Below, piece after piece: positions 15,849 through 60,694 of a stretch of 64,000 nucleotides of DNA. A program made the position numbers and the translations under genes. The notes below the pieces were generated by a model, which did no database searches, was not told the origin of the DNA, and saw only the letters and a list, made by a program, of their open reading frames with translations. The stretch comes from Candidatus Binatia bacterium (lineage in GTDB: Bacteria; Desulfobacterota; Binatia; UTPRO1). Positions within the stretch are counted from its first letter, which is position 1, and each line of letters begins with the position of its first letter. Location of the stretch: positions 37,125 to 101,124 of the forward strand of contig DASXLI010000024.1 of NCBI GenBank assembly GCA_036496285.1, given 5' to 3'.

Positions 15849-16538
15849 ATGGGACGACCGAGTCTCGCCGAGCCGCGCCGCCGGCAGATCGTCGACGGCC
15901 TGCGCACCGCGATCGTGAAGCACGGCCTCGCCGACGCCTCGGTGCAGCGCATCGCCGGCTACGCCGGCCTGCCCGCCGGCCTGGTCCATCACTACTTCGA
16001 CTCGAAGGAAGATCTACTGATCGCCACGGTCGATCAGGTCGTCGAGGACGCGCGCGAGCCCATCAAGGCCGAGCTCGACGTCCTCGATCCCGAGCGCGCC
16101 CTCGAGCGCGCGCTCGACTTCCTCTTCCTCGAGGTGCCAGCCGACCGCGACCGCAGCATCCTCTTCGAGGAGATCGCCGTCGCCGCGCTCCGGCGCCCGC
16201 AGCTGCGCCGGCGCCTGGCGGATCTGTCCGCCTACATGACGAACGAGGTCACGGCGCTGCTCGATCGCCTGCCCGATCGCGCGCGCCAACACGACGCCAA
16301 CATCGATCTCGCCACCATGGTGCTGTGCCTGCTCTACGGAGCCGACGCGCAGCTCCTTTCCGATCCCCACGCCATCCACCCGCGACGTCTCCGCCGGTTC
16401 GCCGGCGAGCTGGTCGCTCGTTTTCGAGGAGTGTCCAATGGAAAGGCTGATGCCCGGGCAACGCCGCATGATCGAGAAGTTCGAAGTGATCGAGCACGTC
16501 GACGAGGGACAAATCGCCGCGCTACGCGAGCGCACTAA
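15849..16538 (+). CDS. TetR family transcriptional regulator
   Basis: It has an N-terminal HTH (QIVDGLRTAIVKHGLADASVQRIAGYAGLPAGLVHHYFDSKEDLL). Its odd C-terminal 35 aa overlap the next gene. Confidence 0.75.
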   Translation: MGRPSLAEPRRRQIVDGLRTAIVKHGLADASVQRIAGYAGLPAGLVHHYFDSKEDLLIATVDQVVEDAREPIKAELDVLDPERALERALDFLFLEVPADRDRSILFEEIAVAALRRPQLRRRLADLSAYMTNEVTALLDRLPDRARQHDANIDLATMVLCLLYGADAQLLSDPHAIHPRRLRRFAGELVARFRGVSNGKADARATPHDREVRSDRARRRGTNRRATRAH

Positions 16539-17511
16539 CGTCGCGGTCCCGCTGGCGCTGCAGTGGACCTGGGAGTACGGCTCCGAGGTCGAGGAGCTGC
16601 GGCAGCTCTACGAGCGCGGCAAGCGCTCGCAGTGGGACGCCGAGACCGATCTCGACTGGTCGATCCCGTTTCCGCGCGAGGAGTGGTTCCTGCCGAAGGA
16701 GGGCTCGTCGCTGCTCGCGGGCGTGCTCGCCACCATCGGCGCCGACGACGCCACCTGCCGCGAGGCCGCGTGGGACGAGTTCGCGCATACGATGTCGCAG
16801 CTCCTGCACGGCGAGCAGGCGGCGCTCCAGCTCTGCGGGCAGCTCACCAACGCCTGCCCGACCATGGACCAGAAGTGGTACGCCGGCTCGCAGGTGATCG
16901 ACGAGGTCCGTCACGTCGAGGTGATCTCGAAGTTCCTGGCGCGCAAGATGGGCACGCTCTACCCGGTGAGCCCGACCATCAAGTTCCTGCTCGACAAGCT
17001 CCTCGAGGCGCCCACCTGGAAGCTCAAGACGCTCGGCATGCAGTGCCTGTTCGAGGGCGTCGCGGTCGGCATCTTCGACATCATCAAGACGATGACGACC
17101 AACCCGCTGCTGAAGGAGATGCTGCGCAAGGTCGAGCTCGACGAGTCGCGCCACGCGGCCTTCGGCATCCTCACCATGCGCCGCCTGGTCGAGGACGCGA
17201 CCCCCGAGGAGATGATCCAGTTCGAGGACTTCGCGTTCGAGGTGCTCGAGGCGCTGAACGCCAACCAGCAGCTCGACATGCTGCACGACCTCGCGCCCAA
17301 GTACGGCGTCGACCCCGAGGCCTGCGTGCGCGTCATGCACAGCCTGCCGAACTGGCACGACCTGAACGCCGAGGTCTACATGCACACGGTGATGCCGAAC
17401 CTCTGCCGGCTCGGCCTCGTCACCGAGCGCACCGAGGAGAAGTACCGCAAGCTCGGCATCCTCTCCGACACGCGCACCGCGCCCCGGAGCGAGCTGCCGC
17501 TGTCTGCCTGA
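16438..17511 (+). CDS. Ferritin-like diiron-carboxylate protein (putative oxygenase or desaturase-like)
   Basis: Repeated E...ExxH motifs are present (HGEQAALQL, DEVRHVEV, ELDESRHAAFG). A strong RBS (GAGGAG) lies 6 nt before the ATG at 16438. Confidence 0.6.
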   Translation: MERLMPGQRRMIEKFEVIEHVDEGQIAALRERTNVAVPLALQWTWEYGSEVEELRQLYERGKRSQWDAETDLDWSIPFPREEWFLPKEGSSLLAGVLATIGADDATCREAAWDEFAHTMSQLLHGEQAALQLCGQLTNACPTMDQKWYAGSQVIDEVRHVEVISKFLARKMGTLYPVSPTIKFLLDKLLEAPTWKLKTLGMQCLFEGVAVGIFDIIKTMTTNPLLKEMLRKVELDESRHAAFGILTMRRLVEDATPEEMIQFEDFAFEVLEALNANQQLDMLHDLAPKYGVDPEACVRVMHSLPNWHDLNAEVYMHTVMPNLCRLGLVTERTEEKYRKLGILSDTRTAPRSELPLSA

Positions 17512-17633: not shown

Positions 17634-20492
17634 TCACGAGCAACTGAGGCGCTGGGCGCTCCCCCGACAGCGCGGCCGCGCCGCGCTCGACGCGCCCCAG
17701 TGGGCCGTGGCGCACTCGTCCACCGCGCCGAAGCGGATCGCCAGATCGACCGGTCCCGCGACCGGAAGCAGCGGGGCGCCGGCGAAGCGCAGATCGAACG
17801 TCAGCCGTCCGGCAACCTGCGACGACTGATCGACGATCGTGAGCCGTCGCAACCCGCCGAGCGCGGCGCTCGGGTCGTCGAAGCGCCAGCGTTTGCCCGA
17901 GACGTTCGTCGTCCACCCGGCGCCGCCCGGCACCGTGACGTCGAGGACCCCGTCGATGACGATGCGGATGCCGTTGCCCGGCGGATCGACGCCGATCCAG
18001 GGCCGCGGGATGAGCGCCCGCCCGACGACATGCATGCTGCCGCCCGCACCGACCCGTAGGCGCGCGCGCTCGATCGAGAAGCCGCTCGCGCACGTACCGC
18101 CGTCGCCCGGCGTGGCGCTCGCGCTCGGCACGGGCGCGGTCGGCGTGGCACCGCCGGCTGGCGAGGTGGGCGTGGCCGTCCGCGTGGCCGCCGGGGTCGG
18201 CGTTCGCGTCGCCATGGGCGTGACGGTGCGCGTGGCGACCGGCGTCGGGGTCTTCGTCGCGACCGGGGTGGCGGTGCGTGTCGCGACGGGGGTCGCGGTG
18301 CGGGTCGCACCGGCCCCGGGCGTCGCCGTCGGAGCGCCGCTCTGCTGCTGCTTCCACTGCGCCAGGAGGCCGTGCAGCGCCTCCGGCTCGTTGGTCGGCG
18401 GCGGGGCACCGGTCTGGCTGAGCGTGTTGATGCCGTGGCAGCTCGCGCAGACGCGGATCTCCCCCGCCTGCATGCTGAGCCAATTGCGCTCGCGGACGAC
18501 CGGCCCGCCCGCGGCGTCGGTGAGCTGCCACGACAGCGCGCGGCGCGCCGGCACGAGCGCCGCGAACGAGCCGTCCGACGCGATCGTCACCGCACCGAGG
18601 GGGCCGCCTGCCGCATGCGAGACGTTCGGCTCGTGCATCGGCCGCGCGAGCAGGCGGCGGCCGGGCTGCGGGCTCACCGGGTTGCCGTAGCCGCGTACGG
18701 CGTCGCCCTGGAAGATCTGCAGATACGAGACGTCATAGGCGGTGCCGCCCGTCGCGATCGACGCGACCCCCCCCGGCACACGCAGATTGAAGGGCTGCGA
18801 GCGATCGGCACGGTCGCGCTGCGTGACGTTGCGGCTCACGATCAGCGCGAGGCCGTTGTTGCGGAGATAGTCCTGGAACGCCGCGACGTCGACGGCCTCC
18901 TGCGCGAAGACTGACGCCTCGATCGACGGCAGGGACTCCTGGCGCGGCGCCGGCACGGAACGGGCGACGACCTCGACCGGGTCGAGCTCCCAGAGCATGC
19001 CGTTGTACGAGGCGAGCGTGTCGGGCGTCCACCAGCTGACGCTCTTCTGGATGCCGGCCGTGAGGCTCGCGAGCGGCGCGTAGAAGGCACCCTGCTTGCT
19101 GAGGATCTTCAGGCGGTACTGATACGACCAGTTCGGCGCGGCGGTGCTGCCGACGTTCTGCAGCTGCCCGGTCGCTGTCGTGTGCGCGGCCAGCAGGGTG
19201 CCGTCCGTCATCGGCAGCGGGTTGCGGAAGTAGCCGGTCTGCTGCGGCACCTGCGCGTCGTTGCCGGTCGGCGTGACCGCGGTGAGCGTCATGTCCTCGG
19301 CGTTGATCGACGGCGCGCCCGTGAGGCGCATCAAGGTGCCGCCGGCGCCGGTGCCGAACTCGGGCGCGTCGGTCGCGAGGAAGTCGCCCGGCACCCGCGG
19401 GTCCTCCCGCAGCTGCAGGAGGCCGCCGTCGCCGCGGATGTCGAGCTGGTTCGCGTGCAGGCTCGGGTCGACGTAGTAGGTCAGGTTCGGGTCGGCGACG
19501 AAGCTGCCGTCGGTGTAGGAGCCGCCGAGCTCGTGCCGCCCGACGTGGTTCAGGGTCTCCTCGGCGGTACCGTCCTCGTTCAGCTCCCACGGGAAGAAGT
19601 GATTGAAGGTATGCAGCGAGACCGCGGGCGAGTACGCGGGATCCCCCTGCGAGCGCGGCTCGGGAAAGATCTCGGCGCCGGCGAGCGTCGTCGTCGTCGC
19701 GGCGTTGGCCGCCTCGCTCGCCCACGTGAAGGACTGGTAGTTGGCGACGACATCCGGCGCGTCGCCCTGCTGGTCGCGCTGCAGATGGTCCCACTTGGTG
19801 AAGACGACGCGGCCGAAGGAGTCGATCGACGGCGTGAAGCTGCCACTCGGCGAGTGCTCGAGCAGCTCGAGGTCGCCCGTCGCCTCGTCGAGCGCGTAGA
19901 TCCCGGCGACCGTGTAGGCGGACTCGTACTCGTCGCGCTGCGGGTAGAGCTGCGGAGCGCCGCTCGGCGGCCGGTCGGACGTGAAGAGGATGCGCCCGTC
20001 GGTCGCGTAGATCGGCGAGACGTTGTTGAAGCTCGCCGGCTGGTTGGCGATCCGACGGATCGTCGCAGTCGCGCCCTGCGCGAGGCCGGTCACCTCGTAG
20101 ATCTGCCAGTGGTACGTGGCAACCTGGTACTGCTGCGTCGGAGCGCCTACGACCATCGCGAAGAGCGCCTTCGTGCCGCTCCAGTGCACGCACGGCTCGC
20201 GCACCGCGATCGCGTTCGCGCCCTGCATGCCGGCGTTGCCGAATCCCCCCTCCTGCGTGAGGAAGCGGAGCGACCCGTCGGGATAGCGAATCACGAGATC
20301 GCCACCGCGCGGCGCGGACTCCATCGTCGCGAGGTGATTGCCGAACGTGCTCGTCAGCGCACCGAACCCGCCGACCGGCATCTGGGTGACGAAGAGTACA
20401 GGGTTGGACGGCGCGACCTGCGCCGGTGCCGTGCACGGGTGCGCGACCACCACGGCTGCCACAAAGCATAGTACCAGGGTCCGGCGTCGCAT
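17634..20492 (-). CDS. Large secreted protein (~953 aa): beta-propeller-like N-terminal region, a single CxxCH heme c motif, a Thr/Pro/Ala linker and a C-terminal beta-rich domain
   Basis: The true start MRRRTLVLCFVAAVVVAHPCTAPAQVA at 20492 (GAGGAG RBS) is followed by a signal peptide. RVCASCHGIN is at about residue 770. The linker is ...TATPVATRTATPVATKTPTPVATRTVTPMATRTPTPAATRT... The track ORF is over-extended at its 5' end. Confidence 0.7.
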   Translation of the reverse strand: MRRRTLVLCFVAAVVVAHPCTAPAQVAPSNPVLFVTQMPVGGFGALTSTFGNHLATMESAPRGGDLVIRYPDGSLRFLTQEGGFGNAGMQGANAIAVREPCVHWSGTKALFAMVVGAPTQQYQVATYHWQIYEVTGLAQGATATIRRIANQPASFNNVSPIYATDGRILFTSDRPPSGAPQLYPQRDEYESAYTVAGIYALDEATGDLELLEHSPSGSFTPSIDSFGRVVFTKWDHLQRDQQGDAPDVVANYQSFTWASEAANAATTTTLAGAEIFPEPRSQGDPAYSPAVSLHTFNHFFPWELNEDGTAEETLNHVGRHELGGSYTDGSFVADPNLTYYVDPSLHANQLDIRGDGGLLQLREDPRVPGDFLATDAPEFGTGAGGTLMRLTGAPSINAEDMTLTAVTPTGNDAQVPQQTGYFRNPLPMTDGTLLAAHTTATGQLQNVGSTAAPNWSYQYRLKILSKQGAFYAPLASLTAGIQKSVSWWTPDTLASYNGMLWELDPVEVVARSVPAPRQESLPSIEASVFAQEAVDVAAFQDYLRNNGLALIVSRNVTQRDRADRSQPFNLRVPGGVASIATGGTAYDVSYLQIFQGDAVRGYGNPVSPQPGRRLLARPMHEPNVSHAAGGPLGAVTIASDGSFAALVPARRALSWQLTDAAGGPVVRERNWLSMQAGEIRVCASCHGINTLSQTGAPPPTNEPEALHGLLAQWKQQQSGAPTATPGAGATRTATPVATRTATPVATKTPTPVATRTVTPMATRTPTPAATRTATPTSPAGGATPTAPVPSASATPGDGGTCASGFSIERARLRVGAGGSMHVVGRALIPRPWIGVDPPGNGIRIVIDGVLDVTVPGGAGWTTNVSGKRWRFDDPSAALGGLRRLTIVDQSSQVAGRLTFDLRFAGAPLLPVAGPVDLAIRFGAVDECATAHWGASSAARPRCRGSAQRLSCS
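18130..18340. repeat. Short tandem-repetitive DNA encoding the TATPVATR linker of the upstream large protein
   Basis: There are repeated gtcgcgac/ggggtcg/gcggtgcg units. On the opposite strand they appear as GVAVRVATGV repeats. Confidence 0.6.
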
Positions 20493-20680
20493 CGCGTCTC
20501 TCCTCGCGCGTTTCCGCGGAATCTGCCGGCAGAGCGCAAAGGCTTGCGCGCCGGCCGCGCAGGAAAAGTGCAAAGAGCGTTCCGGAGCGGCTGCTGGCGC
20601 GCGAATGCTCACACGCCGTGTCGAGTAGTTGTCCACGACGCGCCACTCGACTAAGCGTCGCGCTGAAGGAGGTTCGCGCG

Positions 20681-21586
20681 ATGAATTCTCGATGGCCGAT
20701 CGCTGTCGTCGCCATGATCCTTCTCGCGGTCGCCTCGCCGGCGAGCTCCCAGCAGACGACGGAGACGAGCGAGACGACGGACGTCTCACACTCCACCGCC
20801 CAGCACCTCGAAGCCTTCCTGACGCGATGGGAGATCAGCCTCGGCGGCCAGATCGGCGCGCCGAAGGGATTCGTCAAGGTCGGCGAGTTCGACCGCTCCG
20901 GCGACAAGCTTCGCCTCAACAACGACCTCAAGATCGACACGTTCGAGGTCGCGAGCCTCGGTGCCGGCTTCCACATCACCGACCGCGACGTCATCCGCGC
21001 CCGCTTCGACTACACCTTCCTCTACGGCACGACGACCCGCGGCGACGAGACGGCGTTCAACGGTGCGCTGCTGGCGGCCGGCGAGGCCATCCGCACCCGG
21101 CCGGTCTTCACCCGCATCACCGGCCTCTACGAGCACGAGTTCATCCACGAGCCGAGCGGCGCACTCCTTGCCGCCGGCGGTGGCGTCACGTTCGTCTACC
21201 TGCACTTCAAGCTGCATGGGACGCTCGCGCCCGACACCGTGGGCCACGAGACCCAGGAGGACTTCTACGCGCAGGAGCTGCCGGTCTGGTTGCTGGCGTT
21301 GCACGGCGAGTATCCGATCAGCGAGCGCGTCCACCTGCTCGGCGCCGTCGACGGCGGCTTCCTGCCGAAGGTCGACAGCCTGCGGTCCGAAGGCGGCACG
21401 GTGAAGCTCTCGCAGGGCCACGCCGACGTCTTCGCCGGCGTGCGCGTCGCCGTCACCCCCCAGATCTTCGCCGATGCCGGCTATACCTACACGTACTTCT
21501 CGCAGCATGAGACGAGCCACGAGGACGACAACAAGTTCCTCTTCCTCGGCCACGCCTTCGGCTTCGGCATGACCTACCGCTTCTGA
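20681..21586 (+). CDS. Outer-membrane beta-barrel protein (301 aa) of unknown family
   Basis: An RBS (GAAGGAGG) lies 7 nt before the ATG. It has a signal peptide (MNSRWPIAVVAMILLAVASPASSQQ), alternating amphipathic strands, and a C-terminal ...FGFGMTYRF ending in Phe. Confidence 0.7.
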   Translation: MNSRWPIAVVAMILLAVASPASSQQTTETSETTDVSHSTAQHLEAFLTRWEISLGGQIGAPKGFVKVGEFDRSGDKLRLNNDLKIDTFEVASLGAGFHITDRDVIRARFDYTFLYGTTTRGDETAFNGALLAAGEAIRTRPVFTRITGLYEHEFIHEPSGALLAAGGGVTFVYLHFKLHGTLAPDTVGHETQEDFYAQELPVWLLALHGEYPISERVHLLGAVDGGFLPKVDSLRSEGGTVKLSQGHADVFAGVRVAVTPQIFADAGYTYTYFSQHETSHEDDNKFLFLGHAFGFGMTYRF

Positions 21587-52171: not shown

Positions 52172-52249
52172 GGCGGCATGCTAGCAGCCCGAGGCGAATT
52201 CACCAGCGCGACCTTGACGGTTTCGGGCGTGCGGCGCATTCTGACCACG

Positions 52250-52345
52250 CACGCTGGGGGAGTCGCGGCAGGCGCGACTGAGAGGGCAAGCCGGCCGCTT
52301 GCCGACCCCTCGAACCTGACCCGGATCATGCCGGCGGAGGGAAGC
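52250..52345 (+). promoter_or_regulatory. TPP (THI-box) riboswitch in the thiC leader
   Basis: CUGGGGGAGUCGCGG...CUGAGAGGG...ACCCCUCGAACCUGACCCGGAUCAUGCCGGCGGAGGGA matches the conserved CUGAGA, ACCC and GAACCUGAUC..GG.U.AU.CCGGCG.AGGGA cores. The RBS-like GGAGGG is embedded in its 3' arm. Confidence 0.85.
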
Positions 52346-52348
52346 GAG

Positions 52349-54040
52349 ATGACGACGGACCTGACGCAACTCGAAGCCGCGCGCCGCGGAATCGTCACCG
52401 ACCAGATGGCGCGCGTCGCCGAACGCGAGAACGCTGCGCCCGAGCTGATCCGCTCCGAGGTCGCGCGCGGCCGGCTCGTCATCCCCGCCAACGTCCGGCA
52501 TCTCGCCGGCAGCGGTGGGCAGCCCGTTCCAACCGGCGCCGACGCGTCGGCAATCCACGCGGCCGACGCCGCGGCGAGCGGACATCCGGGCGCGGCGGCC
52601 GAGGCGCGCTACTGGGTGAACCAGACCGTCGCGCAACGCTGGAGCGAGATCACCGACGACGCCGCGCTACGCGGCGTGCACGCGCCGAAGCGGCTCGATC
52701 CTACCGGCATCGGCCGCATGGTCACGACCAAGATCAACGCCAACATCGGTGCGTCGCCGGTCTCGAGCGGCACGGCGGCCGAGGTCGAGAAGCTGCGCTG
52801 GGCGCAGAAGTACGGCGCCGACACGTTGATGGATCTCTCGACCGGCGGCGATCTCGCCGCCTGCCGGCAGGCGATCATCGATCACGCGACGATCCCGATC
52901 GGGACGGTGCCGATCTACTCGATGATCCTCGGACGCGCGATCGAGGACCTCACGTACGACGTCATCCTGCGCGAGATCGAGCACCAGGCGCAGCAAGGCG
53001 TCGACTACTTCACGATCCACGCCGGGGTGCTGCGCGAGCATCTGCCGCTGATCGGCTCACGTGTCACCGGGATCGTCTCGCGTGGCGGCTCGCTCCTCGC
53101 GAAATGGATGATCGTGCACGGCAAGCAGAACCCGATGTACGAGCTCTTCGACGAAATCAGCGCGATCATGCGCGCTTACGACGTCACGTACTCGCTCGGC
53201 GACGGCCTCCGGCCCGGCTGCCTCGCCGACGCCTCGGACGCCGCGCAGCTCGCCGAGCTGCGCACGCTCGGCGAGCTCGTCCACCGCGCCCGCGAAACCG
53301 GGGTGCAGGCGATGGTCGAGGGTCCGGGACACGTCCCCCTCGACCAGATCGAGCGTAACATGCGGTTGCAGCAAGAGGTGTGCGACGATGCGCCCTTCTA
53401 CGTGTTGGGACCTCTCGTCACTGATGTGTTCCCCGGCTATGACCACATCACCAGCGCGATCGGCGCGACCGAGGCTGCTCGTCATGGCGCTGCCATGCTG
53501 TGCTACGTGACCCCCAAGGAACACGTCGGACTCCCCCGGGCCCAGGACGTGATGGCCGGGTGCGTGGCCTACAAGATCGCCGCCCACGCGGGCGACATCG
53601 CGCGCGGCATCCCCGGTGCGCGCCGCTGGGACGACGACCTCTCACGCGCGCGCGCCGCCCTCAACTGGCCGAAACAGTTCGAGCTCGCGTTCGACGGCGA
53701 CACCGCGCGCGCGCTGCACGACGAGGATCTCGAGGTCGATACCGACTTCTGCGCGATGTGCGGACACGACTGGTGCAGCATGCGTATCTCGAAGGAGATC
53801 CAGGAGTTCGCGAGCGGCAAGGACGCGGCGTTTCAGCCCGAGCGGCGCGCCGTACGGAGTCCCGGCGTGAGCGAGGACGGCCAGGCGCTCCTCGCGCGCC
53901 GCGGCACACTGCCCGTGAGCGAAGGTCGCCACGCCTGCCACAGCGAGCTCGTACCGGACGCCGAGTCTGCGCGGCGCGTCCAACGCGACGCCGCAGACGA
54001 CACAGCGGACCCGACGGCAGATCGTACAGCGACGCCATAG
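52349..54040 (+). CDS. thiC: Phosphomethylpyrimidine synthase ThiC
   Basis: It has the radical-SAM ThiC C-terminal [10 protein letters not shown] cluster motif and is ThiC-like throughout ([15 protein letters not shown]). Confidence 0.9.
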
Positions 54041-54799
54041 CGGAAGCACTGCGCAACCCGCATCAAACCGGATCGTTTCACCGTCTCGAGAAGCGCATGA
54101 GATCACGTCTGCGAATTGACACTCCGATTTGGACGCGGTACTCCGCGCTTCTCGGGCAGGTGTGGAGTGGAGTGGGGCGGCCCTCTGGCCCGCACGATCG
54201 GTTCGTGAACGGCCACTGTGGAATGTCGCCCGAGTGCCTGCTCTCCCCCCAGTCCAGAAGGGTGATTTTCCCTCCCGTCTTTGCGGGGTTTCGAACCGCG
54301 CACCCGGGAGACACCACTGGCACTGCAGTGCCGCAAACGTCACGGCGTGCGTCACTCGCCGCACCGTGGCACACGATGCCCGAAACTGGTGCACTGCTAT
54401 GGGTTTTGGCGGAGCGATCCGACACGAGCGCAATCGCCGCCCAACAATGCACGATCGCAACGAATTGCGCGCCGGAAGGGAAATCAAGGACTTGTATTTC
54501 GCGCTGTCGGATGCCGCTTGGAACGATTCTTGATGCCCTGCGTGATCACTCTCTGGCGGCACGATGAGCGCGATTTTCAAAGCGGGGTCGATGATTCGCG
54601 CAAGTCCGACATCGCCGGCGAAGACGCGCGACCAAAGGCATGTACATTCGCACTCACGGCTCCCCGGCATCCAATGGCGCACAGCTTGCACACGACTTCA
54701 CGTGCCTCGGCCTCGCGCCGCGACCCGGTCATGCCGATACCTGCGTATGGACTCACAGCGAACGCCATCCCCTTCCGCCGCCGTCGCCCCGAGGCTCGC

Positions 54800-55507
54800 A
54801 TGACGCCCCGAAGCGCGATGCGCGCGACGCTCCCCCTCCTGGCCGTGCTCTGCACGCTGGCGGCCTGCAGCTACCCGAAGGCGCCCTACGATCCGCCGCT
54901 GCCGACCCTGGCCCACCCAGCGACGGGTGCGCCGGGCGCCTACACGATGCTCGTCGGGGATGCGCTCTCGATCAAGTTCTACAAGAACCCCGAGCTGAAC
55001 GAGGACGTCGTAGTGCGCTCCGACGGCATGATCAGCTTGCAGCTCGTCGGCGACGTGCCGGCGGCGGGGCGGACGCCGATGGAGCTCGGCACCGATCTGA
55101 AGCAGCGCTTCTCGTCCGAGCTCCAGGATCCGTCGATCAGCGTGATCGTGCGGAAGCCGGTCGCCGACCGCGTCTACGTCGGCGGCGAGGTGGGCAAGCA
55201 GGGGTTCATCGATCTGACGGGCGGGCTCACGGTCTTCCAGGCCATCCAGGCGTCCGGCGGCTTCGCGAAGACGGCGCACCGCGCCCAGGTGATCCTGATT
55301 CGTCGCACGCCGGACGGCAAGGCGACGGGTCGCAGCATCGACGTACGTCCGGTCCAGGAGGGCATCCATCCGGAGGACGACGTGGTGGTAGTGGCCAACG
55401 ACGTCGTGTTCGTACCGCGCTCCAAGATCGCCAACGTCGACAACTTCGTGGACATGTACATCCGACAGGTACTGCCGATATCGACTTTCCCGCTACCCAC
55501 CTTCTGA
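54800..55507 (+). CDS. Polysaccharide export outer-membrane lipoprotein (Wza/GumB-like; Poly_export plus SLBB)
   Basis: It has a lipobox (LAACS), a PES-like motif (YTMLVGDALSIKFYKNPELNEDVVVRSDGMISLQLVGDVPAAGRT) and an SLBB domain. Confidence 0.8.
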   Translation: MTPRSAMRATLPLLAVLCTLAACSYPKAPYDPPLPTLAHPATGAPGAYTMLVGDALSIKFYKNPELNEDVVVRSDGMISLQLVGDVPAAGRTPMELGTDLKQRFSSELQDPSISVIVRKPVADRVYVGGEVGKQGFIDLTGGLTVFQAIQASGGFAKTAHRAQVILIRRTPDGKATGRSIDVRPVQEGIHPEDDVVVVANDVVFVPRSKIANVDNFVDMYIRQVLPISTFPLPTF

Positions 55508-55514
55508 GGACTGC

Positions 55515-57032
55515 ATGACGGAGCGAGAGTTCCCATGGCGTGAGATGGTCGCCGTACTGCACCGGCGGCGGCTGCTCATCGCCCAGGTGTTCATCGCCGG
55601 CGTCGCGACCGTCACCGTCGGGCTCTGGATCAAGGGGCCCACGTACCGGGCGACCGCGACCATGATGGTCACTGCCGATCGTGCGAAGAGCATCGTCACG
55701 TCCGACGCGAACACGCACGCCGTCGTGGACCAGGTTCGGGAGGGCGATCTCAACTCCGAGGCAACGCTGCTCCGTAGCGACGCGCTCATTCGCGAGGTCT
55801 TGAGTCCGTACTGGGAGAACCGTCAACCTCGCAAGCCGGGCAGCATCTTCGGCCGCGCGGTGTCGGGGGTGGTCCGCATCGTCACGCTTCCGTTGCGCAT
55901 ACCGGGCCACGTCTATCGCCTCGTGCACAACATCCCGCCGCCGACGGAGTTCGACGGCTGGGTCGCCGAGACGGAGAGCCATCTCACCATCAGCCCCATC
56001 CTGCACTCGAACCTCATCGAGGTGTCGGTTGACGACACGGATCCGAAATGGGCGGCGGATCTCGTCAACAAGGTGATCGCCCAACACATCGAGCGCCACG
56101 CGCGGCTGAATCAGCAGGCGGAGGCGCGGCAGTTCTATGAGAAGCAGCGCGAGCTGCTCGCGCAGAAGTCCGCCGATGCCGAGCAGTCATTGCAGCACTT
56201 CTACCAGCGGGAGCACGTCGATCCGGGCGCGGAGCAGCGCAGCGCAATGCGCGCACGGCTCGGGGAGTTGCAGACGAACCTCGCGAACTCGGAAACCGAG
56301 CTCGCCGAGGGCACCGCGCGCGTCGAGTTTCTCACGACCGAGATCAAGAACTACTCGCGCAACATCCCGACGTCGGCGCGCGTGGCGGAAAGCCCAACCG
56401 CCCAGCTCATCAAGCCGAAGATCATCGAGCTCGAGATGCAGCGCAGCCAGCTGCTCTCCACCTACGCACCGACGAGCGTGAAGGTGAAGGATCTCGACCG
56501 CCAGATCGCCGAGGCCAAGCGTCTGATGAACGAGTCGAAGGACACTACGAGCGACACCACGACCGCGGTGAATCCGACCTACCAGACGATCGAGGCGGAT
56601 CTCGCGTCCACCAAGGCGCAGATGGCGGCCGTGCGTGCGCGCGTCGAGACGCTGCGCACGCAGATCGCCGATTCGCGCGCGAAGGTCGACCATCTCGACG
56701 AGATCGGCGCCGAGCAGGAGCATCTCGAGCAACAGCTCGCCGCGGCCAAGGAAGCGTACGGTACCTACGCCAAGAAGGAAGAGGAGGCGCGCTTCAGCAG
56801 CGCCCTCGACGAATCGAGCATCGTCAACCTGGCGATCGCGGAGCCCGCAGAGCCGCCGGCGACGCCGGAGAAGACCAAGAACATCCTCGTCTTCTGCATC
56901 GGAATGCTTCTCAGCCTGTTCGTCGGCGTCGGCCTTGCGTTCATCCGTGACCGTCTCGATCCCGCCGTGAAGAGCGCCGCGGAGGCGCACGGCGTCACCG
57001 GCCTGCCGATCCTCGCGGAGGTGTCGTCGTAG
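55515..57032 (+). CDS. Polysaccharide chain-length determinant (Wzz/GumC-like PCP) protein
   Basis: An N-terminal TM is followed by a long periplasmic coiled coil. It has a Pro-rich segment and a TM at the C-terminus (ILVFCIGMLLSLFVGVGLAFI). Confidence 0.8.
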   Translation: MTEREFPWREMVAVLHRRRLLIAQVFIAGVATVTVGLWIKGPTYRATATMMVTADRAKSIVTSDANTHAVVDQVREGDLNSEATLLRSDALIREVLSPYWENRQPRKPGSIFGRAVSGVVRIVTLPLRIPGHVYRLVHNIPPPTEFDGWVAETESHLTISPILHSNLIEVSVDDTDPKWAADLVNKVIAQHIERHARLNQQAEARQFYEKQRELLAQKSADAEQSLQHFYQREHVDPGAEQRSAMRARLGELQTNLANSETELAEGTARVEFLTTEIKNYSRNIPTSARVAESPTAQLIKPKIIELEMQRSQLLSTYAPTSVKVKDLDRQIAEAKRLMNESKDTTSDTTTAVNPTYQTIEADLASTKAQMAAVRARVETLRTQIADSRAKVDHLDEIGAEQEHLEQQLAAAKEAYGTYAKKEEEARFSSALDESSIVNLAIAEPAEPPATPEKTKNILVFCIGMLLSLFVGVGLAFIRDRLDPAVKSAAEAHGVTGLPILAEVSS

Positions 57033-57066: not shown

Positions 57067-58422
57067 ATGTACACGGGTCACTTCCACCTACGTTCCGAAG
57101 CCTTCTCCCTCACGCCCGATCCGGCGTTCCTGTATCTGAGCCCGGGCCACGCCGAGGCCCTCGCGGGCCTCAAGGTCGGCCTCGAAGGCCGCCGCGGCTT
57201 GATGGTGGTCGTGGGCGAGGTCGGGATGGGGAAGACGACGGTGCTCTACTCGCTCCTCACCGAGCTCGGCGAGGGCATCAAGACCGCCTACATCTCCAAC
57301 ACCAAGCTGCCGTTCGACGACATCCTGCGCCAGGCGCTCTCCGACTTCGGCGTGCCGTGCGCGAGCCGCGACCGGGTGGAGCTGCTGTCCGCCCTGAACG
57401 GCTTCCTGCGCGAGTGCGCCTCCGACGGCACGACCGCCGCCCTCGTCATCGACGAAGCCCAGAACCTCGAGAGCGACGTCTTCGAAAACCTCCGGCTGCT
57501 GTCGAACTACGAGACCTACACCGAGAAGCTCTTGCAGATCGTGCTGGTCGGCCAGCCCGAGCTGGAGATGAAGCTGCGCCACCCGAGCCTCCGCCAGGTG
57601 GTGGAGCGCGTCGCGGTGCGCTGCAACATCAATCCGCTGAGCCGCGCCGAGAGCATGCGCTACGTCGAGCACCGCCTGCAGCGCGCCGGCGGCTCGGCGT
57701 CGGCCATCTTCACGACGCCGGCGCTCGAGTTCTTGCTGGTGAAGGCGCGTGGCATCCCGCGCCGTATCAACATCCTCTGTCACACGGCCATGCTCTTCGC
57801 GTACGGCCGCGGCGAGCAGCTCGTGACCTTTTCCATGGCACGGGCCGCCGCGCGCGAGAAGGAAGGCCGCGGCCTGATCACGCTGCGCCGCGGGCTGCTG
57901 CCGAGCGCCGCGCCGGCGGCCGAGGCGCAGACCACGCCGCGTTTCCGTCCCGCGTGGGCGGGCGTGGGCTTCGTCGCCGGCATCGTGGTCATGGTCGGGC
58001 TGGGCGTTCTCGACGGCCGGACCGCGCCGCGCGACGCCGTGAGCGCGCCGGCCGCGCAGCCGCTCCTCGACGAAAGCGCCGAGGCGTTGCAGCGCGAGCG
58101 CGCCGACAAGCGCCTGAACGAGGCGATCGAGACGCTCACCGCGGCCATCGCGGCCCAACAGAAGGCGAACGCCGAAGCTCCCGCGGTGGTGACACCGAAC
58201 GCGGAAGAGCTTCCGGCGCCGACGCTCGAGCCGCAGTCGTACAAGGAGATCCGCGTGCGCCGGGGCACGACGCTCCGCGCGCTCGTAAAGGAGGTCTACG
58301 GCCAGGACAAGCCGGACCTGATCGACCGTATCAAGACCGCCAACCCGCAGATCGTGAATGCCGACCGCATCATCGCCGGCGATATGTTGCGTTTCCCGGA
58401 CTCGGCCACGGTACGCGAATGA
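57067..58422 (+). CDS. GspA/ExeA-like AAA ATPase of the exopolysaccharide-locus (PEP-CTERM-associated) type
   Basis: It has Walker A (GEVGMGKTT), Walker B (LVIDEAQNL), a central TM, and a C-terminal LysM-like segment (YKEIRVRRGTTLRALVKEVYGQDKPDLIDRIKTANP). Confidence 0.8.
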   Translation: MYTGHFHLRSEAFSLTPDPAFLYLSPGHAEALAGLKVGLEGRRGLMVVVGEVGMGKTTVLYSLLTELGEGIKTAYISNTKLPFDDILRQALSDFGVPCASRDRVELLSALNGFLRECASDGTTAALVIDEAQNLESDVFENLRLLSNYETYTEKLLQIVLVGQPELEMKLRHPSLRQVVERVAVRCNINPLSRAESMRYVEHRLQRAGGSASAIFTTPALEFLLVKARGIPRRINILCHTAMLFAYGRGEQLVTFSMARAAAREKEGRGLITLRRGLLPSAAPAAEAQTTPRFRPAWAGVGFVAGIVVMVGLGVLDGRTAPRDAVSAPAAQPLLDESAEALQRERADKRLNEAIETLTAAIAAQQKANAEAPAVVTPNAEELPAPTLEPQSYKEIRVRRGTTLRALVKEVYGQDKPDLIDRIKTANPQIVNADRIIAGDMLRFPDSATVRE

Positions 58423-59285
58423 GCAACTACTTCCAGGTACTGAAGCGCATCGAGAAGGACCGCGCCGGCAAGGTCGCGGCACTCCCCGCCGCCGAGGCCG
58501 CGCCGGCTCCGTCCGTTGCGCCGCGCGAGCCCGCGCCGGCACCGCCGGTCGTCGAGGAGCGTGTCGCGCGCGAGGTGCAGCCGATCATCCGTGCCGTGCC
58601 GCCGCCGCGCCCGTCGGTCACGACGTTGCAGCCGATGGCTCCCGCGGCGCCGCGCACGCCGGCACCGCGTCCCGCGCCGTTCGTCCCACCTCCGGTCCGT
58701 CCGCGCTCGTCGGCGCCGCTCTCGCACGAGCGCCAGCGCGGCATCGCGACGCTCCTCGACAAGATGCGCGCGCTCGGCAGCGGTCAGTCGTCGCGCACCT
58801 TCGTCTTCGCCGGTGCGGCGCCGTCCGACAGCGTCCACAGCGTGAGCGACGGCCTGGCCCGCCACGCCGAAGGCTTCGGGATGCACGTGTTGATCGCGCA
58901 GCTCTTCGTACACGGGGGCGGCCACAAGCTGGTCGCCGTCGGCCCGATCGAGAACGACGCCGACCGCACGGCAACGATCGACCTGCACGGCCCGGCCGCG
59001 CCCGACGAGCTGAACGCGTGGGTCGACCGCGTCGCCTCGACGCACGACCTCGTCGTGCTCGAGGGCCCACCGCTCTCGGAATCGATCGACGCGGCGCTGC
59101 TCGCCTGCGCCTGCGACGGCCTCGTGATCGTCGCGGACGCCGAGGTCACGCCGCGCGCGGCGCTGCAGACCGCGGCGGAGCGTGCGCATACCGCGGGCTG
59201 CCGCACGCTCGGCGTCGTGATGAGCGGCACCAAGGAACGTCTCCCGGGCTGGGTTCGCCGGCTCGGCATCGGCGGGAACGGCTGA
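58419..59285 (+). CDS. Pro-rich N-terminus plus a degenerate ParA/BY-kinase-like P-loop domain (Walker A Lys/Ser absent)
   Basis: The N-terminal 110 aa are rich in Pro, Ala and Arg. The C-terminal region has FVFAGAAPSDSVHSVSDGLA in place of GxxxxGK[ST], and a Walker-B-like DLVVLEGPP. It is ATGA-coupled to both neighbours. Confidence 0.55.
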   Translation: MSNYFQVLKRIEKDRAGKVAALPAAEAAPAPSVAPREPAPAPPVVEERVAREVQPIIRAVPPPRPSVTTLQPMAPAAPRTPAPRPAPFVPPPVRPRSSAPLSHERQRGIATLLDKMRALGSGQSSRTFVFAGAAPSDSVHSVSDGLARHAEGFGMHVLIAQLFVHGGGHKLVAVGPIENDADRTATIDLHGPAAPDELNAWVDRVASTHDLVVLEGPPLSESIDAALLACACDGLVIVADAEVTPRAALQTAAERAHTAGCRTLGVVMSGTKERLPGWVRRLGIGGNG

Positions 59286-60694
59286 TGGCCCCGCGACGCA
59301 AAGCGCTGATCACGGTCCTCAAGCTGACCGACCTCGCCGTCGTGACGGCGGCGCTGGTCGCCGCCGTGGCCATCACGACCGACGGCGCGAGGATCCTCGA
59401 TTGGCCCGCGATCCTCGAGCTGCGCCTGTCGATCGGCAACGTCCTGGTGTTCGCGATGTACATCGTCGCCTGGCACTTCATCCTGAAGGTGCGCGGCCTG
59501 TACAAGTCGTACCGGCTGTCGCCCGCGTCGCGCGAGCTGCGCGACATCGCCATCGCGGTGCTGATCGGCGCCGCGCCGATCGCCCTCGCCGTCCTCCTCG
59601 GCGCGATGAGCGAGCGGTTCCTGGTCGCGTTCTCGCTGGGGAGCTTCCTCGGCCTCGCCGTCGAGCGCCGTTGCCTGCGCGCCGTCGCGCGCCGCGTCCG
59701 CGGCTTCGGCCGCAATCTCCTCGACGTCGTGATCGTCGGCGACGAGACGTGCGCGCTCGACGCTGCCGTGCGGCTCGTGCAGCGCGAGGGGCTCGGCTAC
59801 CGGGTCATCGAGATCGTCGGCGTGGGGCCGTTCGACGCTGATCCGCAGACGCACAAGGACGTCCTCGCGACGGTCGAGCAGATCCTCGAGCGCCAGCCGA
59901 TCGACGAGGTGTTCCTCGCGATCCCGCTCGACCGCACCCAGCCACTCCTCCAACCCCTCATTACGATGTGCGAGGAGCAGGGCACCACGCTCCGCCTGGT
60001 GGCGAGCCTCGCCGTCCTCGATTGGTCGCGTGCCGCGGTCGACTCACTCGCAGGACAGCCGGTGCTCACCATCTCGTCCGGACCGCCCGACTCGCTGCGC
60101 CTGGTCGTGAAGCGCTCCATCGATCTCGCCGCCTCGGCAGTGGGCCTGGTCCTCTTCCTGCCGCTTTTCACCGCCATCGCGATCGCCATCAAGCTCGACT
60201 CGCAGGGCCCGGTGCTCTTCGCCCAGGACCGCGTCGGCCTGAACCGTCGCCGCTTCAGAGCGCTCAAGTTCCGCACGATGATCCAGGGCGCCGACCTCAT
60301 GCAGCCGGACCTCGAGTCGCTGAACGAGGCCGAGGGCCCTGTCTTCAAGATCCAGGACGATCCGCGCATCACCCGGCTCGGGCGTGCGCTCCGCCGCTTG
60401 AGTCTCGACGAGCTTCCCCAGCTCTTCAACGTCCTGGTCGGCGACATGAGCCTCGTCGGCCCGCGTCCGCTGCCGGTGCGCGACGTGAGCCGCATCGACG
60501 TGCGCTGGCACAAGCGCCGCTTCAGCGTGAAACCCGGCATCACCTGCCTGTGGCAGATCAACAGTCGCGAGCCGAAGTTCGAGGAATGGATCCGCTCCGA
60601 CATGGAATACATCGACAACTGGTCCCTCGCGCTCGACATGAAGATCCTTGCCAAGACTCTGCCCGCCGTCATCTCGGGGCAGGGCGCTCACTGA
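59285..60694 (+). CDS. Undecaprenyl-phosphate sugar phosphotransferase (WbaP/EpsB-type priming glycosyltransferase)
   Basis: It has four or five N-terminal TM helices, a Rossmann-like CoA-binding-type domain, and a C-terminal catalytic domain (KRSIDLAASAVGLVLFLPLF...KFRTM...LDELPQLFNVLVGDMSLVGPRP). Confidence 0.85.
   Translation: MAPRRKALITVLKLTDLAVVTAALVAAVAITTDGARILDWPAILELRLSIGNVLVFAMYIVAWHFILKVRGLYKSYRLSPASRELRDIAIAVLIGAAPIALAVLLGAMSERFLVAFSLGSFLGLAVERRCLRAVARRVRGFGRNLLDVVIVGDETCALDAAVRLVQREGLGYRVIEIVGVGPFDADPQTHKDVLATVEQILERQPIDEVFLAIPLDRTQPLLQPLITMCEEQGTTLRLVASLAVLDWSRAAVDSLAGQPVLTISSGPPDSLRLVVKRSIDLAASAVGLVLFLPLFTAIAIAIKLDSQGPVLFAQDRVGLNRRRFRALKFRTMIQGADLMQPDLESLNEAEGPVFKIQDDPRITRLGRALRRLSLDELPQLFNVLVGDMSLVGPRPLPVRDVSRIDVRWHKRRFSVKPGITCLWQINSREPKFEEWIRSDMEYIDNWSLALDMKILAKTLPAVISGQGAH

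Follow-up and report, generated by a model that had tools for sequence, protein, structure and literature searches.

A 64,000-nucleotide stretch of the Candidatus Binatia bacterium contig DASXLI010000024.1 (hereafter, the window) encodes, at positions 58419 to 59285 of the forward strand, a stand-alone protein of 288 amino acids with the fold of bacterial tyrosine (BY) kinases and none of their catalytic motifs. The gene is located in an operon for exopolysaccharide (EPS) export, two genes downstream of a polysaccharide co-polymerase (PCP) of the PCP-2 type that lacks a kinase domain. Proteins of this kind were defined as BY pseudokinases by Blocher et al. (J Bacteriol 2025; PMC12004946). By analogy with the characterised examples, the Binatia protein is probably a cytoplasmic subunit or scaffold of a bipartite, phosphorylation-independent PCP-2, which would dock on the tail of the PCP and organise or stabilise the co-polymerase. 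We regard it as a new and well-conserved example of a recently established kind of protein, and not as a new principle; its new features are an N-terminal helix carried on a tether and a tight coupling to an AAA+ ATPase.

A real gene belonging to a large family

The open reading frame (ORF), consisting of 288 codons and a stop codon, was confirmed as a real, conserved gene. Its GC content at the three codon positions was 0.76, 0.56 and 0.91, the value of 0.91 at third positions (GC3) being as in the flanking genes, and its product was 100% identical to the hypothetical protein VGK30_04695 of a Candidatus Binatia metagenome-assembled genome (MAG). A full HMMER scan of 1.84 billion representatives retrieved 157 proteins with E≤1e-30, which correspond to clusters at 50% identity, 305 with E≤1e-10, and 4771 with E≤1e-3, the last set including ordinary kinases. 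In scans of genomes and metagenomes, most of the family came from MAGs of Binatia and "Deltaproteobacteria", divergent relatives were found in Acidobacteriota and Thermoanaerobaculia, and all of its members came from uncultured MAGs. The annotation as a BY pseudokinase is offered here for a protein that at present carries the label "hypothetical" or the mistaken one "Mrp family partitioning ATPase" in Binatia genomes.

A BY-kinase fold preceded by a tethered helix

An AlphaFold2 model of the protein was built on 61 homologues and reached a mean predicted local distance difference test score (pLDDT) of 83.5. The protein starts with a helix, MSNYFQVLKRIEKDRAGKVA (residues 1-20; 58419 to 58478, + strand), modelled at residues 3-20 with pLDDT 80-86. 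This helix is followed by a Pro/Ala-rich linker that is predicted to be disordered (residues 21-102; 58479 to 58724, + strand), as judged from its composition and its low pLDDT (~50-64 for residues 21-70 and 73-82 for residues 71-100), and that showed no secondary structure from residue 21 to ~100. Proline accounts for 30% and alanine for 22% of the linker, as expected from the Pro/Ala-rich N-terminal part described in the original prediction, an earlier reading of the bare sequence; its length and sequence differ widely among orthologues. The remaining part of the protein is a BY-kinase-like Rossmann/P-loop-fold domain of the SIMIBI type without catalytic motifs (residues 103-283; 58725 to 59267, + strand), modelled as a seven-stranded Rossmann/P-loop-like domain at residues 103-281 with pLDDT >90.

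Both structural and sequence comparisons pointed to BY-kinases. In a Foldseek search against the PDB, the top 50 matches to the model were all BY-kinase domains, and MinD and ParA were clearly below them in structural match scores. The NCBIfam model TIGR01007 matched residues 196-272, in the C-terminal half of the protein, with an E value of 4e-11 (42.8 bits, against a cutoff of 108). At E≤0.1, the only other NCBIfam matches were likewise to BY-kinase models, Wzc included, and all were far under the family cutoffs (21.8 bits against 313.8 for TIGR03029, and 16.8 against 230.65 for TIGR03018). Searches of PDB sequences returned only BY-kinases, with CapB at E values of 0.0013-0.003. No Pfam match of any kind was obtained at E≤0.1, and no transmembrane segment was detected, the maximum 19-residue hydropathy (1.77) lying within the globular core. 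Because of the E value of the TIGR01007 match and the 157 clusters retrieved at E≤1e-30, the match to BY-kinases is not due to chance. The original prediction had assigned the C-terminal domain to a BY-kinase or a MinD-like fold; the former is borne out by the Foldseek, TIGR01007 and CapB matches, and the latter is not, given the clearly lower scores of MinD and ParA.

The extent of conservation was examined in 210 relatives, drawn from 68 word-index and 150 representative hits and aligned to a hidden Markov model (HMM) of the family; the frequencies given below refer to this set. Three regions are conserved, namely the N-terminal helix, W201 and the C-terminal half of the protein. The helix carries the near-invariant motif MSNYFQVLKRIE, with the consensus MS[NE]Y[FI]xxLxRLE, in which Y4, L8, R10 and E12 are present in 100%, 99%, 98% and 93% of the sequences covering the N-terminus, respectively. 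The motif was found in 132 of the 210 relatives, many of the others being fragments. The C-terminal half contains many near-invariant residues, and its consensus is PPLxxSIDAALLAxACDGLVIVAExEVTxRxALxxAAERAxxAGCRTLGVVMxGTxxRxPxWxRR.

Two family-specific cysteines, C232 (80% of relatives) and C261 (90%), stand just before adjacent beta-strands, at positions where canonical kinases have no cysteine. A Cys2-His metal site formed by H149, C232 and C261 was considered and dropped, since H149 is conserved in only 47% of relatives.

Family-wide loss of the catalytic motifs

The Walker A region of the protein is degenerate. The string quoted in the original prediction, FAGAAPSDSVHS, is present at residues 130-141 (58806 to 58841, + strand), and in HMMER alignments to Wzc and CapB its S138-V139-H140 took the place of the Walker A Gly-Lys-Thr/Ser. 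Among relatives, position 139 is occupied by V (61%), A (16%), T (6%) or I (5%), Lys being outside the four commonest residues. None of the 210 relatives has GK[ST] at the aligned Walker A position, and three carry a chance match elsewhere. The replacement of the Walker A lysine, read by the original prediction from this protein, therefore extends to its orthologues.

The original prediction had also named two findings that would speak against it, a functional Walker A elsewhere in the sequence or a wrong start codon hiding one upstream, and neither was found. No [AG]xxxxGK[ST] or GK[ST] occurs anywhere in the 288-residue protein, and GK[ST] is also absent from the 642-aa in-frame upstream extension of the ORF, which is open back to position 57357. 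In addition, all homologues start at the same Met of the MS[NE]Y sequence. An upstream start supplying a P-loop is ruled out on these two grounds, and a wrongly assigned start codon cannot account for its absence.

The other catalytic elements are lost as well. By manual alignment to the hhhhDxDxR pattern (h, hydrophobic) and family column frequencies, the Walker A' position corresponds to VLIAQLFV (residues 157-164; 58887 to 58910, + strand), with A160 and L162 in place of the two Asp residues; neither the alignment to CapB nor that to Wzc extends quite this far. Leu occupies position 162 in 82% of relatives. The Walker-B-like strand DLVVLEGPP (residues 210-218; 59046 to 59072, + strand), present as quoted in the original prediction, aligns with "YDIIIVDTPP" of CapB, and in this alignment the counterpart of the Walker B Asp is E215 and not the D of "DLVV". 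Position 215 is variable in the family (E 50%, T 19%, A 7%, D 5%). Of Walker B, the hydrophobic strand and the PP alone thus remain, and the original view that Walker B was retained does not hold for its acidic residue. The counterpart of the EX2RX2R motif is E104-x2-R107-x2-A110, with family frequencies of 23% for E, 17% for R and 64% for A. Finally, Y4 is the sole tyrosine of the protein, so that there is no C-terminal tyrosine cluster, and Tyr is absent from the last 25 residues in 183 of the 210 relatives.

Altogether, these data support the view that the C-terminal domain is a BY-kinase fold stripped of all catalytic motifs. As the motifs are missing across the 210 relatives, the alignments indicate that their loss is a stable, family-wide character and not the outcome of recent decay.

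The pseudokinase is encoded with a kinase-less co-polymerase

The presumed partner of the pseudokinase is a PCP-2-type polysaccharide co-polymerase of 505 aa without a kinase domain (55515 to 57032, + strand). It matched TIGR03007 with an E value of 1.6e-47 (161.9 bits, against a cutoff of 278.85), gave weak Wzz and GNVR matches, and aligned to positions 7-477 of the 754 positions of the TIGR01005 model, that is, to the PCP portion only. The protein ends 28 residues past its second transmembrane helix, and this cytoplasmic C-terminal tail, RDRLDPAVKSAAEAHGVTGLPILAEVSS (56946 to 57029, + strand), is proposed as a docking peptide on the basis of its conservation in 22 loci. The tail (consensus RDRLDPxVKSAAEAxxVTGLPILAEV) is nearly invariant in these loci, where the pseudokinase is only 33-85% identical. 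By the TIGR01005 alignment, and by a weak one to PslE, it occupies the point at which fused PCP-2a proteins go on to the kinase domain with its first helix and strand.

The PCP and pseudokinase genes are separated by a gene encoding an ExeA/GspA-like AAA+ ATPase with a LysM-like domain (57067 to 58422, + strand; AAA_22, E value 1.8e-27). In this ATPase, Walker A is intact (GEVGMGKT), there is one transmembrane helix (~aa 297-315), and the LysM match, at the C-terminus, has an E value of 0.002; the score of the ATPase for TIGR03015, 258.4 bits, is below the cutoff of 324.5. The ATG of the pseudokinase gene overlaps the TGA of the ATPase gene as ATGA (4 bp), and its stop codon shares one base, at position 59285, with the start of the following gene. 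The latter (59285 to 60694, + strand) encodes a polyprenyl glycosylphosphotransferase (PGT), the initiating enzyme, with 373.8 bits for TIGR03025 (cutoff 295.55) and an E value of 1e-64 for Bac_transf.

The first gene of the module encodes a short, Wza-like outer-membrane polysaccharide export (OPX) lipoprotein (54818 to 55507, + strand) with Poly_export and SLBB domains and the lipobox LAAC; its matches to TIGR03027 (105 against 180 bits) and EpsY are below the cutoffs. This protein has only 229 aa, and its best named match is the periplasmic OPX protein EpsY. OPX proteins as short as this one depend on a separate beta-barrel partner in the outer membrane, and no such protein came to light within 10 kb of the operon. 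Downstream of the PGT gene there are sugar-modifying genes, encoding a glycosyltransferase of family GT2, a Gfo/Idh/MocA protein, an acetyltransferase, an aminotransferase, deacetylases and WecG.

The order OPX-PCP-ATPase-pseudokinase-PGT is kept in ~40 loci, in which the pseudokinase is 33-88% identical. In lineages without the ATPase, the pseudokinase gene comes straight after the PCP gene (L021, L027, L029, L053, L061, L063 and L065-L067), as in the classical PCP-2b/kinase arrangement. Neither a canonical BY-kinase nor a phosphotyrosine phosphatase was revealed by scans of the 10 kb to each side of the pseudokinase gene and of 20 large upstream ORFs between positions 1 and 41252.

Comparison with characterised systems

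The first experimental characterisation of BY pseudokinases dates from 2013 to 2025. EcpK of M. xanthus (MXAN_7447) adopts the BY-kinase fold, has neither Walker motifs nor a Tyr tail, and is required for EPS; it binds the kinase-less PCP-2 EpsV, whose 25-residue C-terminal tail lies in a groove of EcpK in the published model (PMC12004946). HfsB of the Caulobacter crescentus holdfast system stabilises the kinase-less PCP-2 HfsA, the pseudokinase being needed for PCP stability (PMC12004946). Further candidates were named in an earlier survey (Cuthbertson et al. 2009). The Binatia protein was set beside EcpK and HfsB by their published descriptions.

Like EcpK, the Binatia protein is a stand-alone cytoplasmic protein with a BY-kinase fold that lacks Walker A, A' and B and a Tyr-rich tail. 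The EPS cluster concerned has, in both cases, a PCP-2 devoid of a kinase domain but with ~25 residues of cytoplasmic tail, and there is no need for a phosphatase. On the other hand, EcpK has a five-stranded core without alpha1, alpha2, beta1, alpha6, alpha7, beta4 and beta5, whereas seven strands are predicted here, and the Binatia protein retains detectable sequence similarity to true kinases. Its near-invariant N-terminal helix and Pro-rich tether are undescribed for EcpK. The taxon and the genetic context also differ: ecpK is not adjacent to epsV but in a second eps cluster 18 genes away, while the gene studied here is beside that of the AAA+ ATPase and two genes from that of the PCP. With HfsB, the protein shares its condition of stand-alone BY pseudokinase without catalytic residues or Tyr tail, paired with a kinase-less PCP-2. 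HfsB, however, belongs to another lineage; its C-terminal helix has been modelled against the first transmembrane helix, and no AAA+ ATPase partner has been described for it. On NCBIfam evidence, only BY-kinase models match the Binatia protein at E≤0.1. By strong analogy, the protein would belong with EcpK and HfsB to the kind formed by a BY pseudokinase and a kinase-less PCP-2, as it fits this kind on every feature tested.

Canonical BY-kinases, such as CapB of S. aureus, the XrtA-associated tyrosine autokinase (TIGR03018) and EpsG (TIGR03029), share with the Binatia protein the fold and a neighbourhood of OPX, PCP and PGT genes. The likeness extends to the pattern of the C-terminal half (hhhh-x-x-PP ... 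DA.LLA ... DG.hhVh ... T ... LGhVhN) and to a PCP partner with a C-terminal tail, comparable to the activating tail of CapA. In contrast to these kinases, the protein lacks the catalytic motifs and the Tyr cluster and scores far below the family cutoffs.

The module as a whole resembles the promonan cluster of Sphingomonas LM7, with the gene order Wza-PrmE (AAA+ ATPase)-PrmF (Wzz)-PrmG (BY-kinase) (PMC11340318), and XrtA/PEP-CTERM loci (TIGR03027, TIGR03007, TIGR03015 and TIGR03018), all of which contain the same module genes, including an ExeA-like AAA+ ATPase. The promonan cluster differs in that PrmG is described as a bona fide BY-kinase and in that the ATPase gene precedes that of the PCP, instead of following it as here. 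With respect to XrtA/PEP-CTERM loci, the OPX, PCP, ATPase and kinase-like proteins are all below the equivalog cutoffs, and no exosortase was found among the scanned window proteins, a scan that left out 41-50 kb.

A proposed non-catalytic scaffold for the co-polymerase

Following the precedent of EcpK and HfsB, we propose that the Binatia protein is a soluble cytoplasmic protein of BY-kinase fold that would neither bind nor hydrolyse ATP in the canonical way and would have no tyrosines to phosphorylate. By analogy with the EpsV/EcpK and CapA/CapB pairs, it would probably dock onto the invariant 28-residue C-terminal tail of the kinase-less PCP encoded two genes upstream. The docked pseudokinase would stabilise or organise the PCP oligomer, which would couple repeat-unit polymerisation to export via the OPX protein, without the involvement of a phosphorylation/dephosphorylation cycle. 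A second partner is probably recruited by the N-terminal helix at the end of its long Pro-rich tether. The ExeA-like AAA+ ATPase, which is co-translated, comes first among the candidates because the two genes are translationally coupled and the motif is intact in proteins encoded beside the ATPase.

The original prediction had suggested a non-catalytic scaffold that may regulate both the adjacent chain-length determinant and the ATPase. Its first part stands as a probable role, with the motif loss, the kinase-less PCP with an invariant tail and the precedent of EcpK and HfsB behind it. As for the second part, the evidence is circumstantial, and a functional link between pseudokinase and ATPase is possible.

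AlphaFold2 modelling of a fusion of the PCP tail of the window to the N-terminus of the pseudokinase, in which only pseudokinase homologues were aligned, with no depth for the tail and no spacer, gave a pLDDT of 57-64 for the tail and no added beta-strand; the tail ran into one helix with the N-terminal helix, an outcome that is not a negative one in this set-up. Three observations weigh against a scaffold of the co-polymerase. First, the EX2RX2R ring-interface motif is lost, and an octameric ring is therefore not assured. Second, the pseudokinase gene is translationally coupled to the ATPase gene rather than the PCP gene, so that a role centred on the ATPase has to be allowed for. Third, Wzx and Wzy were not seen in the 10 kb downstream of the pseudokinase gene, so that a Wzx/Wzy-dependent setting is assumed from the OPX, PCP and PGT proteins.

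BY pseudokinases have only recently been recognised as functional parts of polysaccharide machines, HfsB being the earlier case and EcpK that of 2025. The family described here differs from the characterised examples in its size and strong conservation, in its tethered helix and in a fixed association with an AAA+ ATPase. It can also be aligned motif by motif with true kinases, and this reveals the surfaces kept after catalysis was lost: the C-terminal half and the PCP tail have been kept, and the P-loop, the Asp residues of Walker A' and of Walker B, EX2RX2R and the Tyr tail have been lost. The family provides a defined set of candidate interactions, and its main value comes from two features, the helix on its tether and the link with the AAA+ ATPase. 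ATPases of this type are essential yet unexplained in related EPS clusters.

Alternative roles of the pseudokinase

A first alternative, which we consider rather unlikely, is that the protein serves primarily to regulate the ExeA-like AAA+ ATPase encoded upstream, or to act as its adaptor, the two forming a GspA/GspB-type pair. The AAA+ domain would then be bound by the N-terminal helix, with the dead kinase domain as an interaction module of secondary rank. Consistent with this proposal, the ATPase and pseudokinase genes overlap by 4 bp in the window and in loci L002, L005 and L006, and wherever the ATPase gene stands immediately upstream, the N-terminus MS[NEH]Y..L.RLE has been preserved intact. 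In PCP-adjacent loci, the motif is degenerate (L021, L053 and L061) or missing (L027, L029, L063 and L065-L067). Moreover, PrmE, the homologous AAA+ ATPase of the promonan cluster, is essential for promonan production, with a role that is unexplained (PMC11340318). The correlation between motif and ATPase is, however, confounded by phylogeny, because the loci without the motif are the most divergent ones (Acidobacteriota type). A strict dependence of the motif on an adjacent ATPase is ruled out by loci L021, L053 and L061, which keep a weakened motif with no ATPase adjacent. The pseudokinase also persists beside the PCP without the ATPase in several lineages, and its best-conserved part is the kinase-like C-terminal half and not the N-terminus.

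The comparison with GspB, which the original prediction had drawn from the Pro/Ala-rich N-terminal part, did not withstand examination either. The gene does resemble those of GspB/ExeB in directly following that of an ExeA-like ATPase with a peptidoglycan-binding domain, and its product has a Pro-rich stretch. GspB is anchored in the membrane as a bitopic protein and has a periplasmic domain. The Binatia protein, in contrast, has a cytoplasmic kinase-like fold, its Pro-rich stretch is a variable linker and not a conserved domain, and the absence of a transmembrane segment and of any Pfam match at E≤0.1, and hence of T2SSB/GspB similarity, rules out a GspB-like identity.

It could also be speculated that scaffold and ATPase act together, the tyrosine phosphorylation cycle that drives PCP-2 assembly and disassembly being replaced by an ATP-driven cycle of the ExeA-like AAA+ protein, with the pseudokinase as adaptor. 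In this doubtful scheme, the PCP tail would be held by the dead kinase domain at the same time as the AAA+ ring, anchored in the membrane and bound to peptidoglycan via LysM, would engage the tethered N-terminal helix. If so, the co-polymerase would be remodelled through ATP hydrolysis by the AAA+ ATPase, and export would be coordinated with transit across the cell wall.

Many eukaryotic pseudokinases act as ligand-controlled switches. A similar behaviour, in which non-canonical binding of a nucleotide or some other small ligand would make the Binatia domain a switch rather than an inert scaffold, appears improbable. The P-loop strand-loop-helix geometry is predicted with high confidence, small residues of the loop are kept (G132 in 68% and A133 in 66% of relatives), position 137 is acidic (E 47%, D 26%), and D224 (85%) is kept after the Walker-B-like strand. 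Against these features stand the change of G-K-S/T to S-V-H with a position 139 that is hydrophobic in the family, the loss of both Walker A' Asp residues, and a Walker B acidic residue that is not conserved.

A relative of the MinD/ParA-type positioning ATPases, unrelated to polysaccharide co-polymerases, is very improbable, since all sequence-level matches are to BY-kinase models, the deviant Walker A (KGGxxK[ST]) of such proteins is absent, and the operon context is that of polysaccharide export. Finally, a functionless relic of a decaying BY-kinase, or an annotation artefact of a high-GC genome, might be argued from the missing Pfam match, the low-complexity N-terminal third and the antisense ORF overlaps common in a window with 69% GC, but it is effectively refuted by the conservation of the family (157 clusters at E≤1e-30, with residues that do not vary and an unchanged place in the operon at identities of 33-88%), along with the coding pattern (GC3 0.91) and the confident predicted fold.

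Divergent family members and further features of the window

Several members of the family depart from the common type. Relatives in Thermoanaerobaculia/Acidobacteriota-type loci (L029, 2352-3500; L065, 6155-7282; L063, 628-1845) lack the MSxYF helix, have the PCP directly upstream with no ATPase, and carry a ~100-residue Gly/Ala/Ser-rich insertion in the kinase-like domain, before the conserved Trp. Two copies of the pseudokinase gene were found in the MAG MFD00822.bin.1.245. One of them is full and located in the usual EPS operon (L025, 8001-8555), and the second one, on contig_71692, encodes the orphan protein P0064 of 219 aa (L003, 10001-10660, equivalent to L020, 8001-8525). This orphan has neither N-terminal helix nor linker, and its neighbours are unrelated genes, for CsbD, FtsH, a KaiC-like ATPase and two-component proteins. 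A complete bacterial OPX-PCP-ATPase-pseudokinase-PGT operon is also present in a MAG labelled as the archaeon "Nitrosopumilus sp." (L026; CAXQPB010000159.1), probably through a binning error.

Upstream of the operon, a thiamine pyrophosphate (TPP) riboswitch (RF00059; 64 bits, E value 3e-10) was located at positions 52246-52359 (+ strand), directly upstream of thiC, which ends at position 54040. A non-coding gap of ~780 bp (54041-54817), in which one ORF of 44 aa was called by JGI, separates thiC from the first EPS gene. In locus L007, the same operon is preceded by a sigma-54 activator gene and a small "Frankia_peptide" gene. Elsewhere in the window, a reading frame of 1066 aa on the reverse strand (17634-20834) matched nothing but the alpha subunit of hydrazine synthase, in its middle domain (PF18582, E value 1.5e-8), and it adjoins the ORF of an AurF-like di-iron oxygenase (16240-17511).

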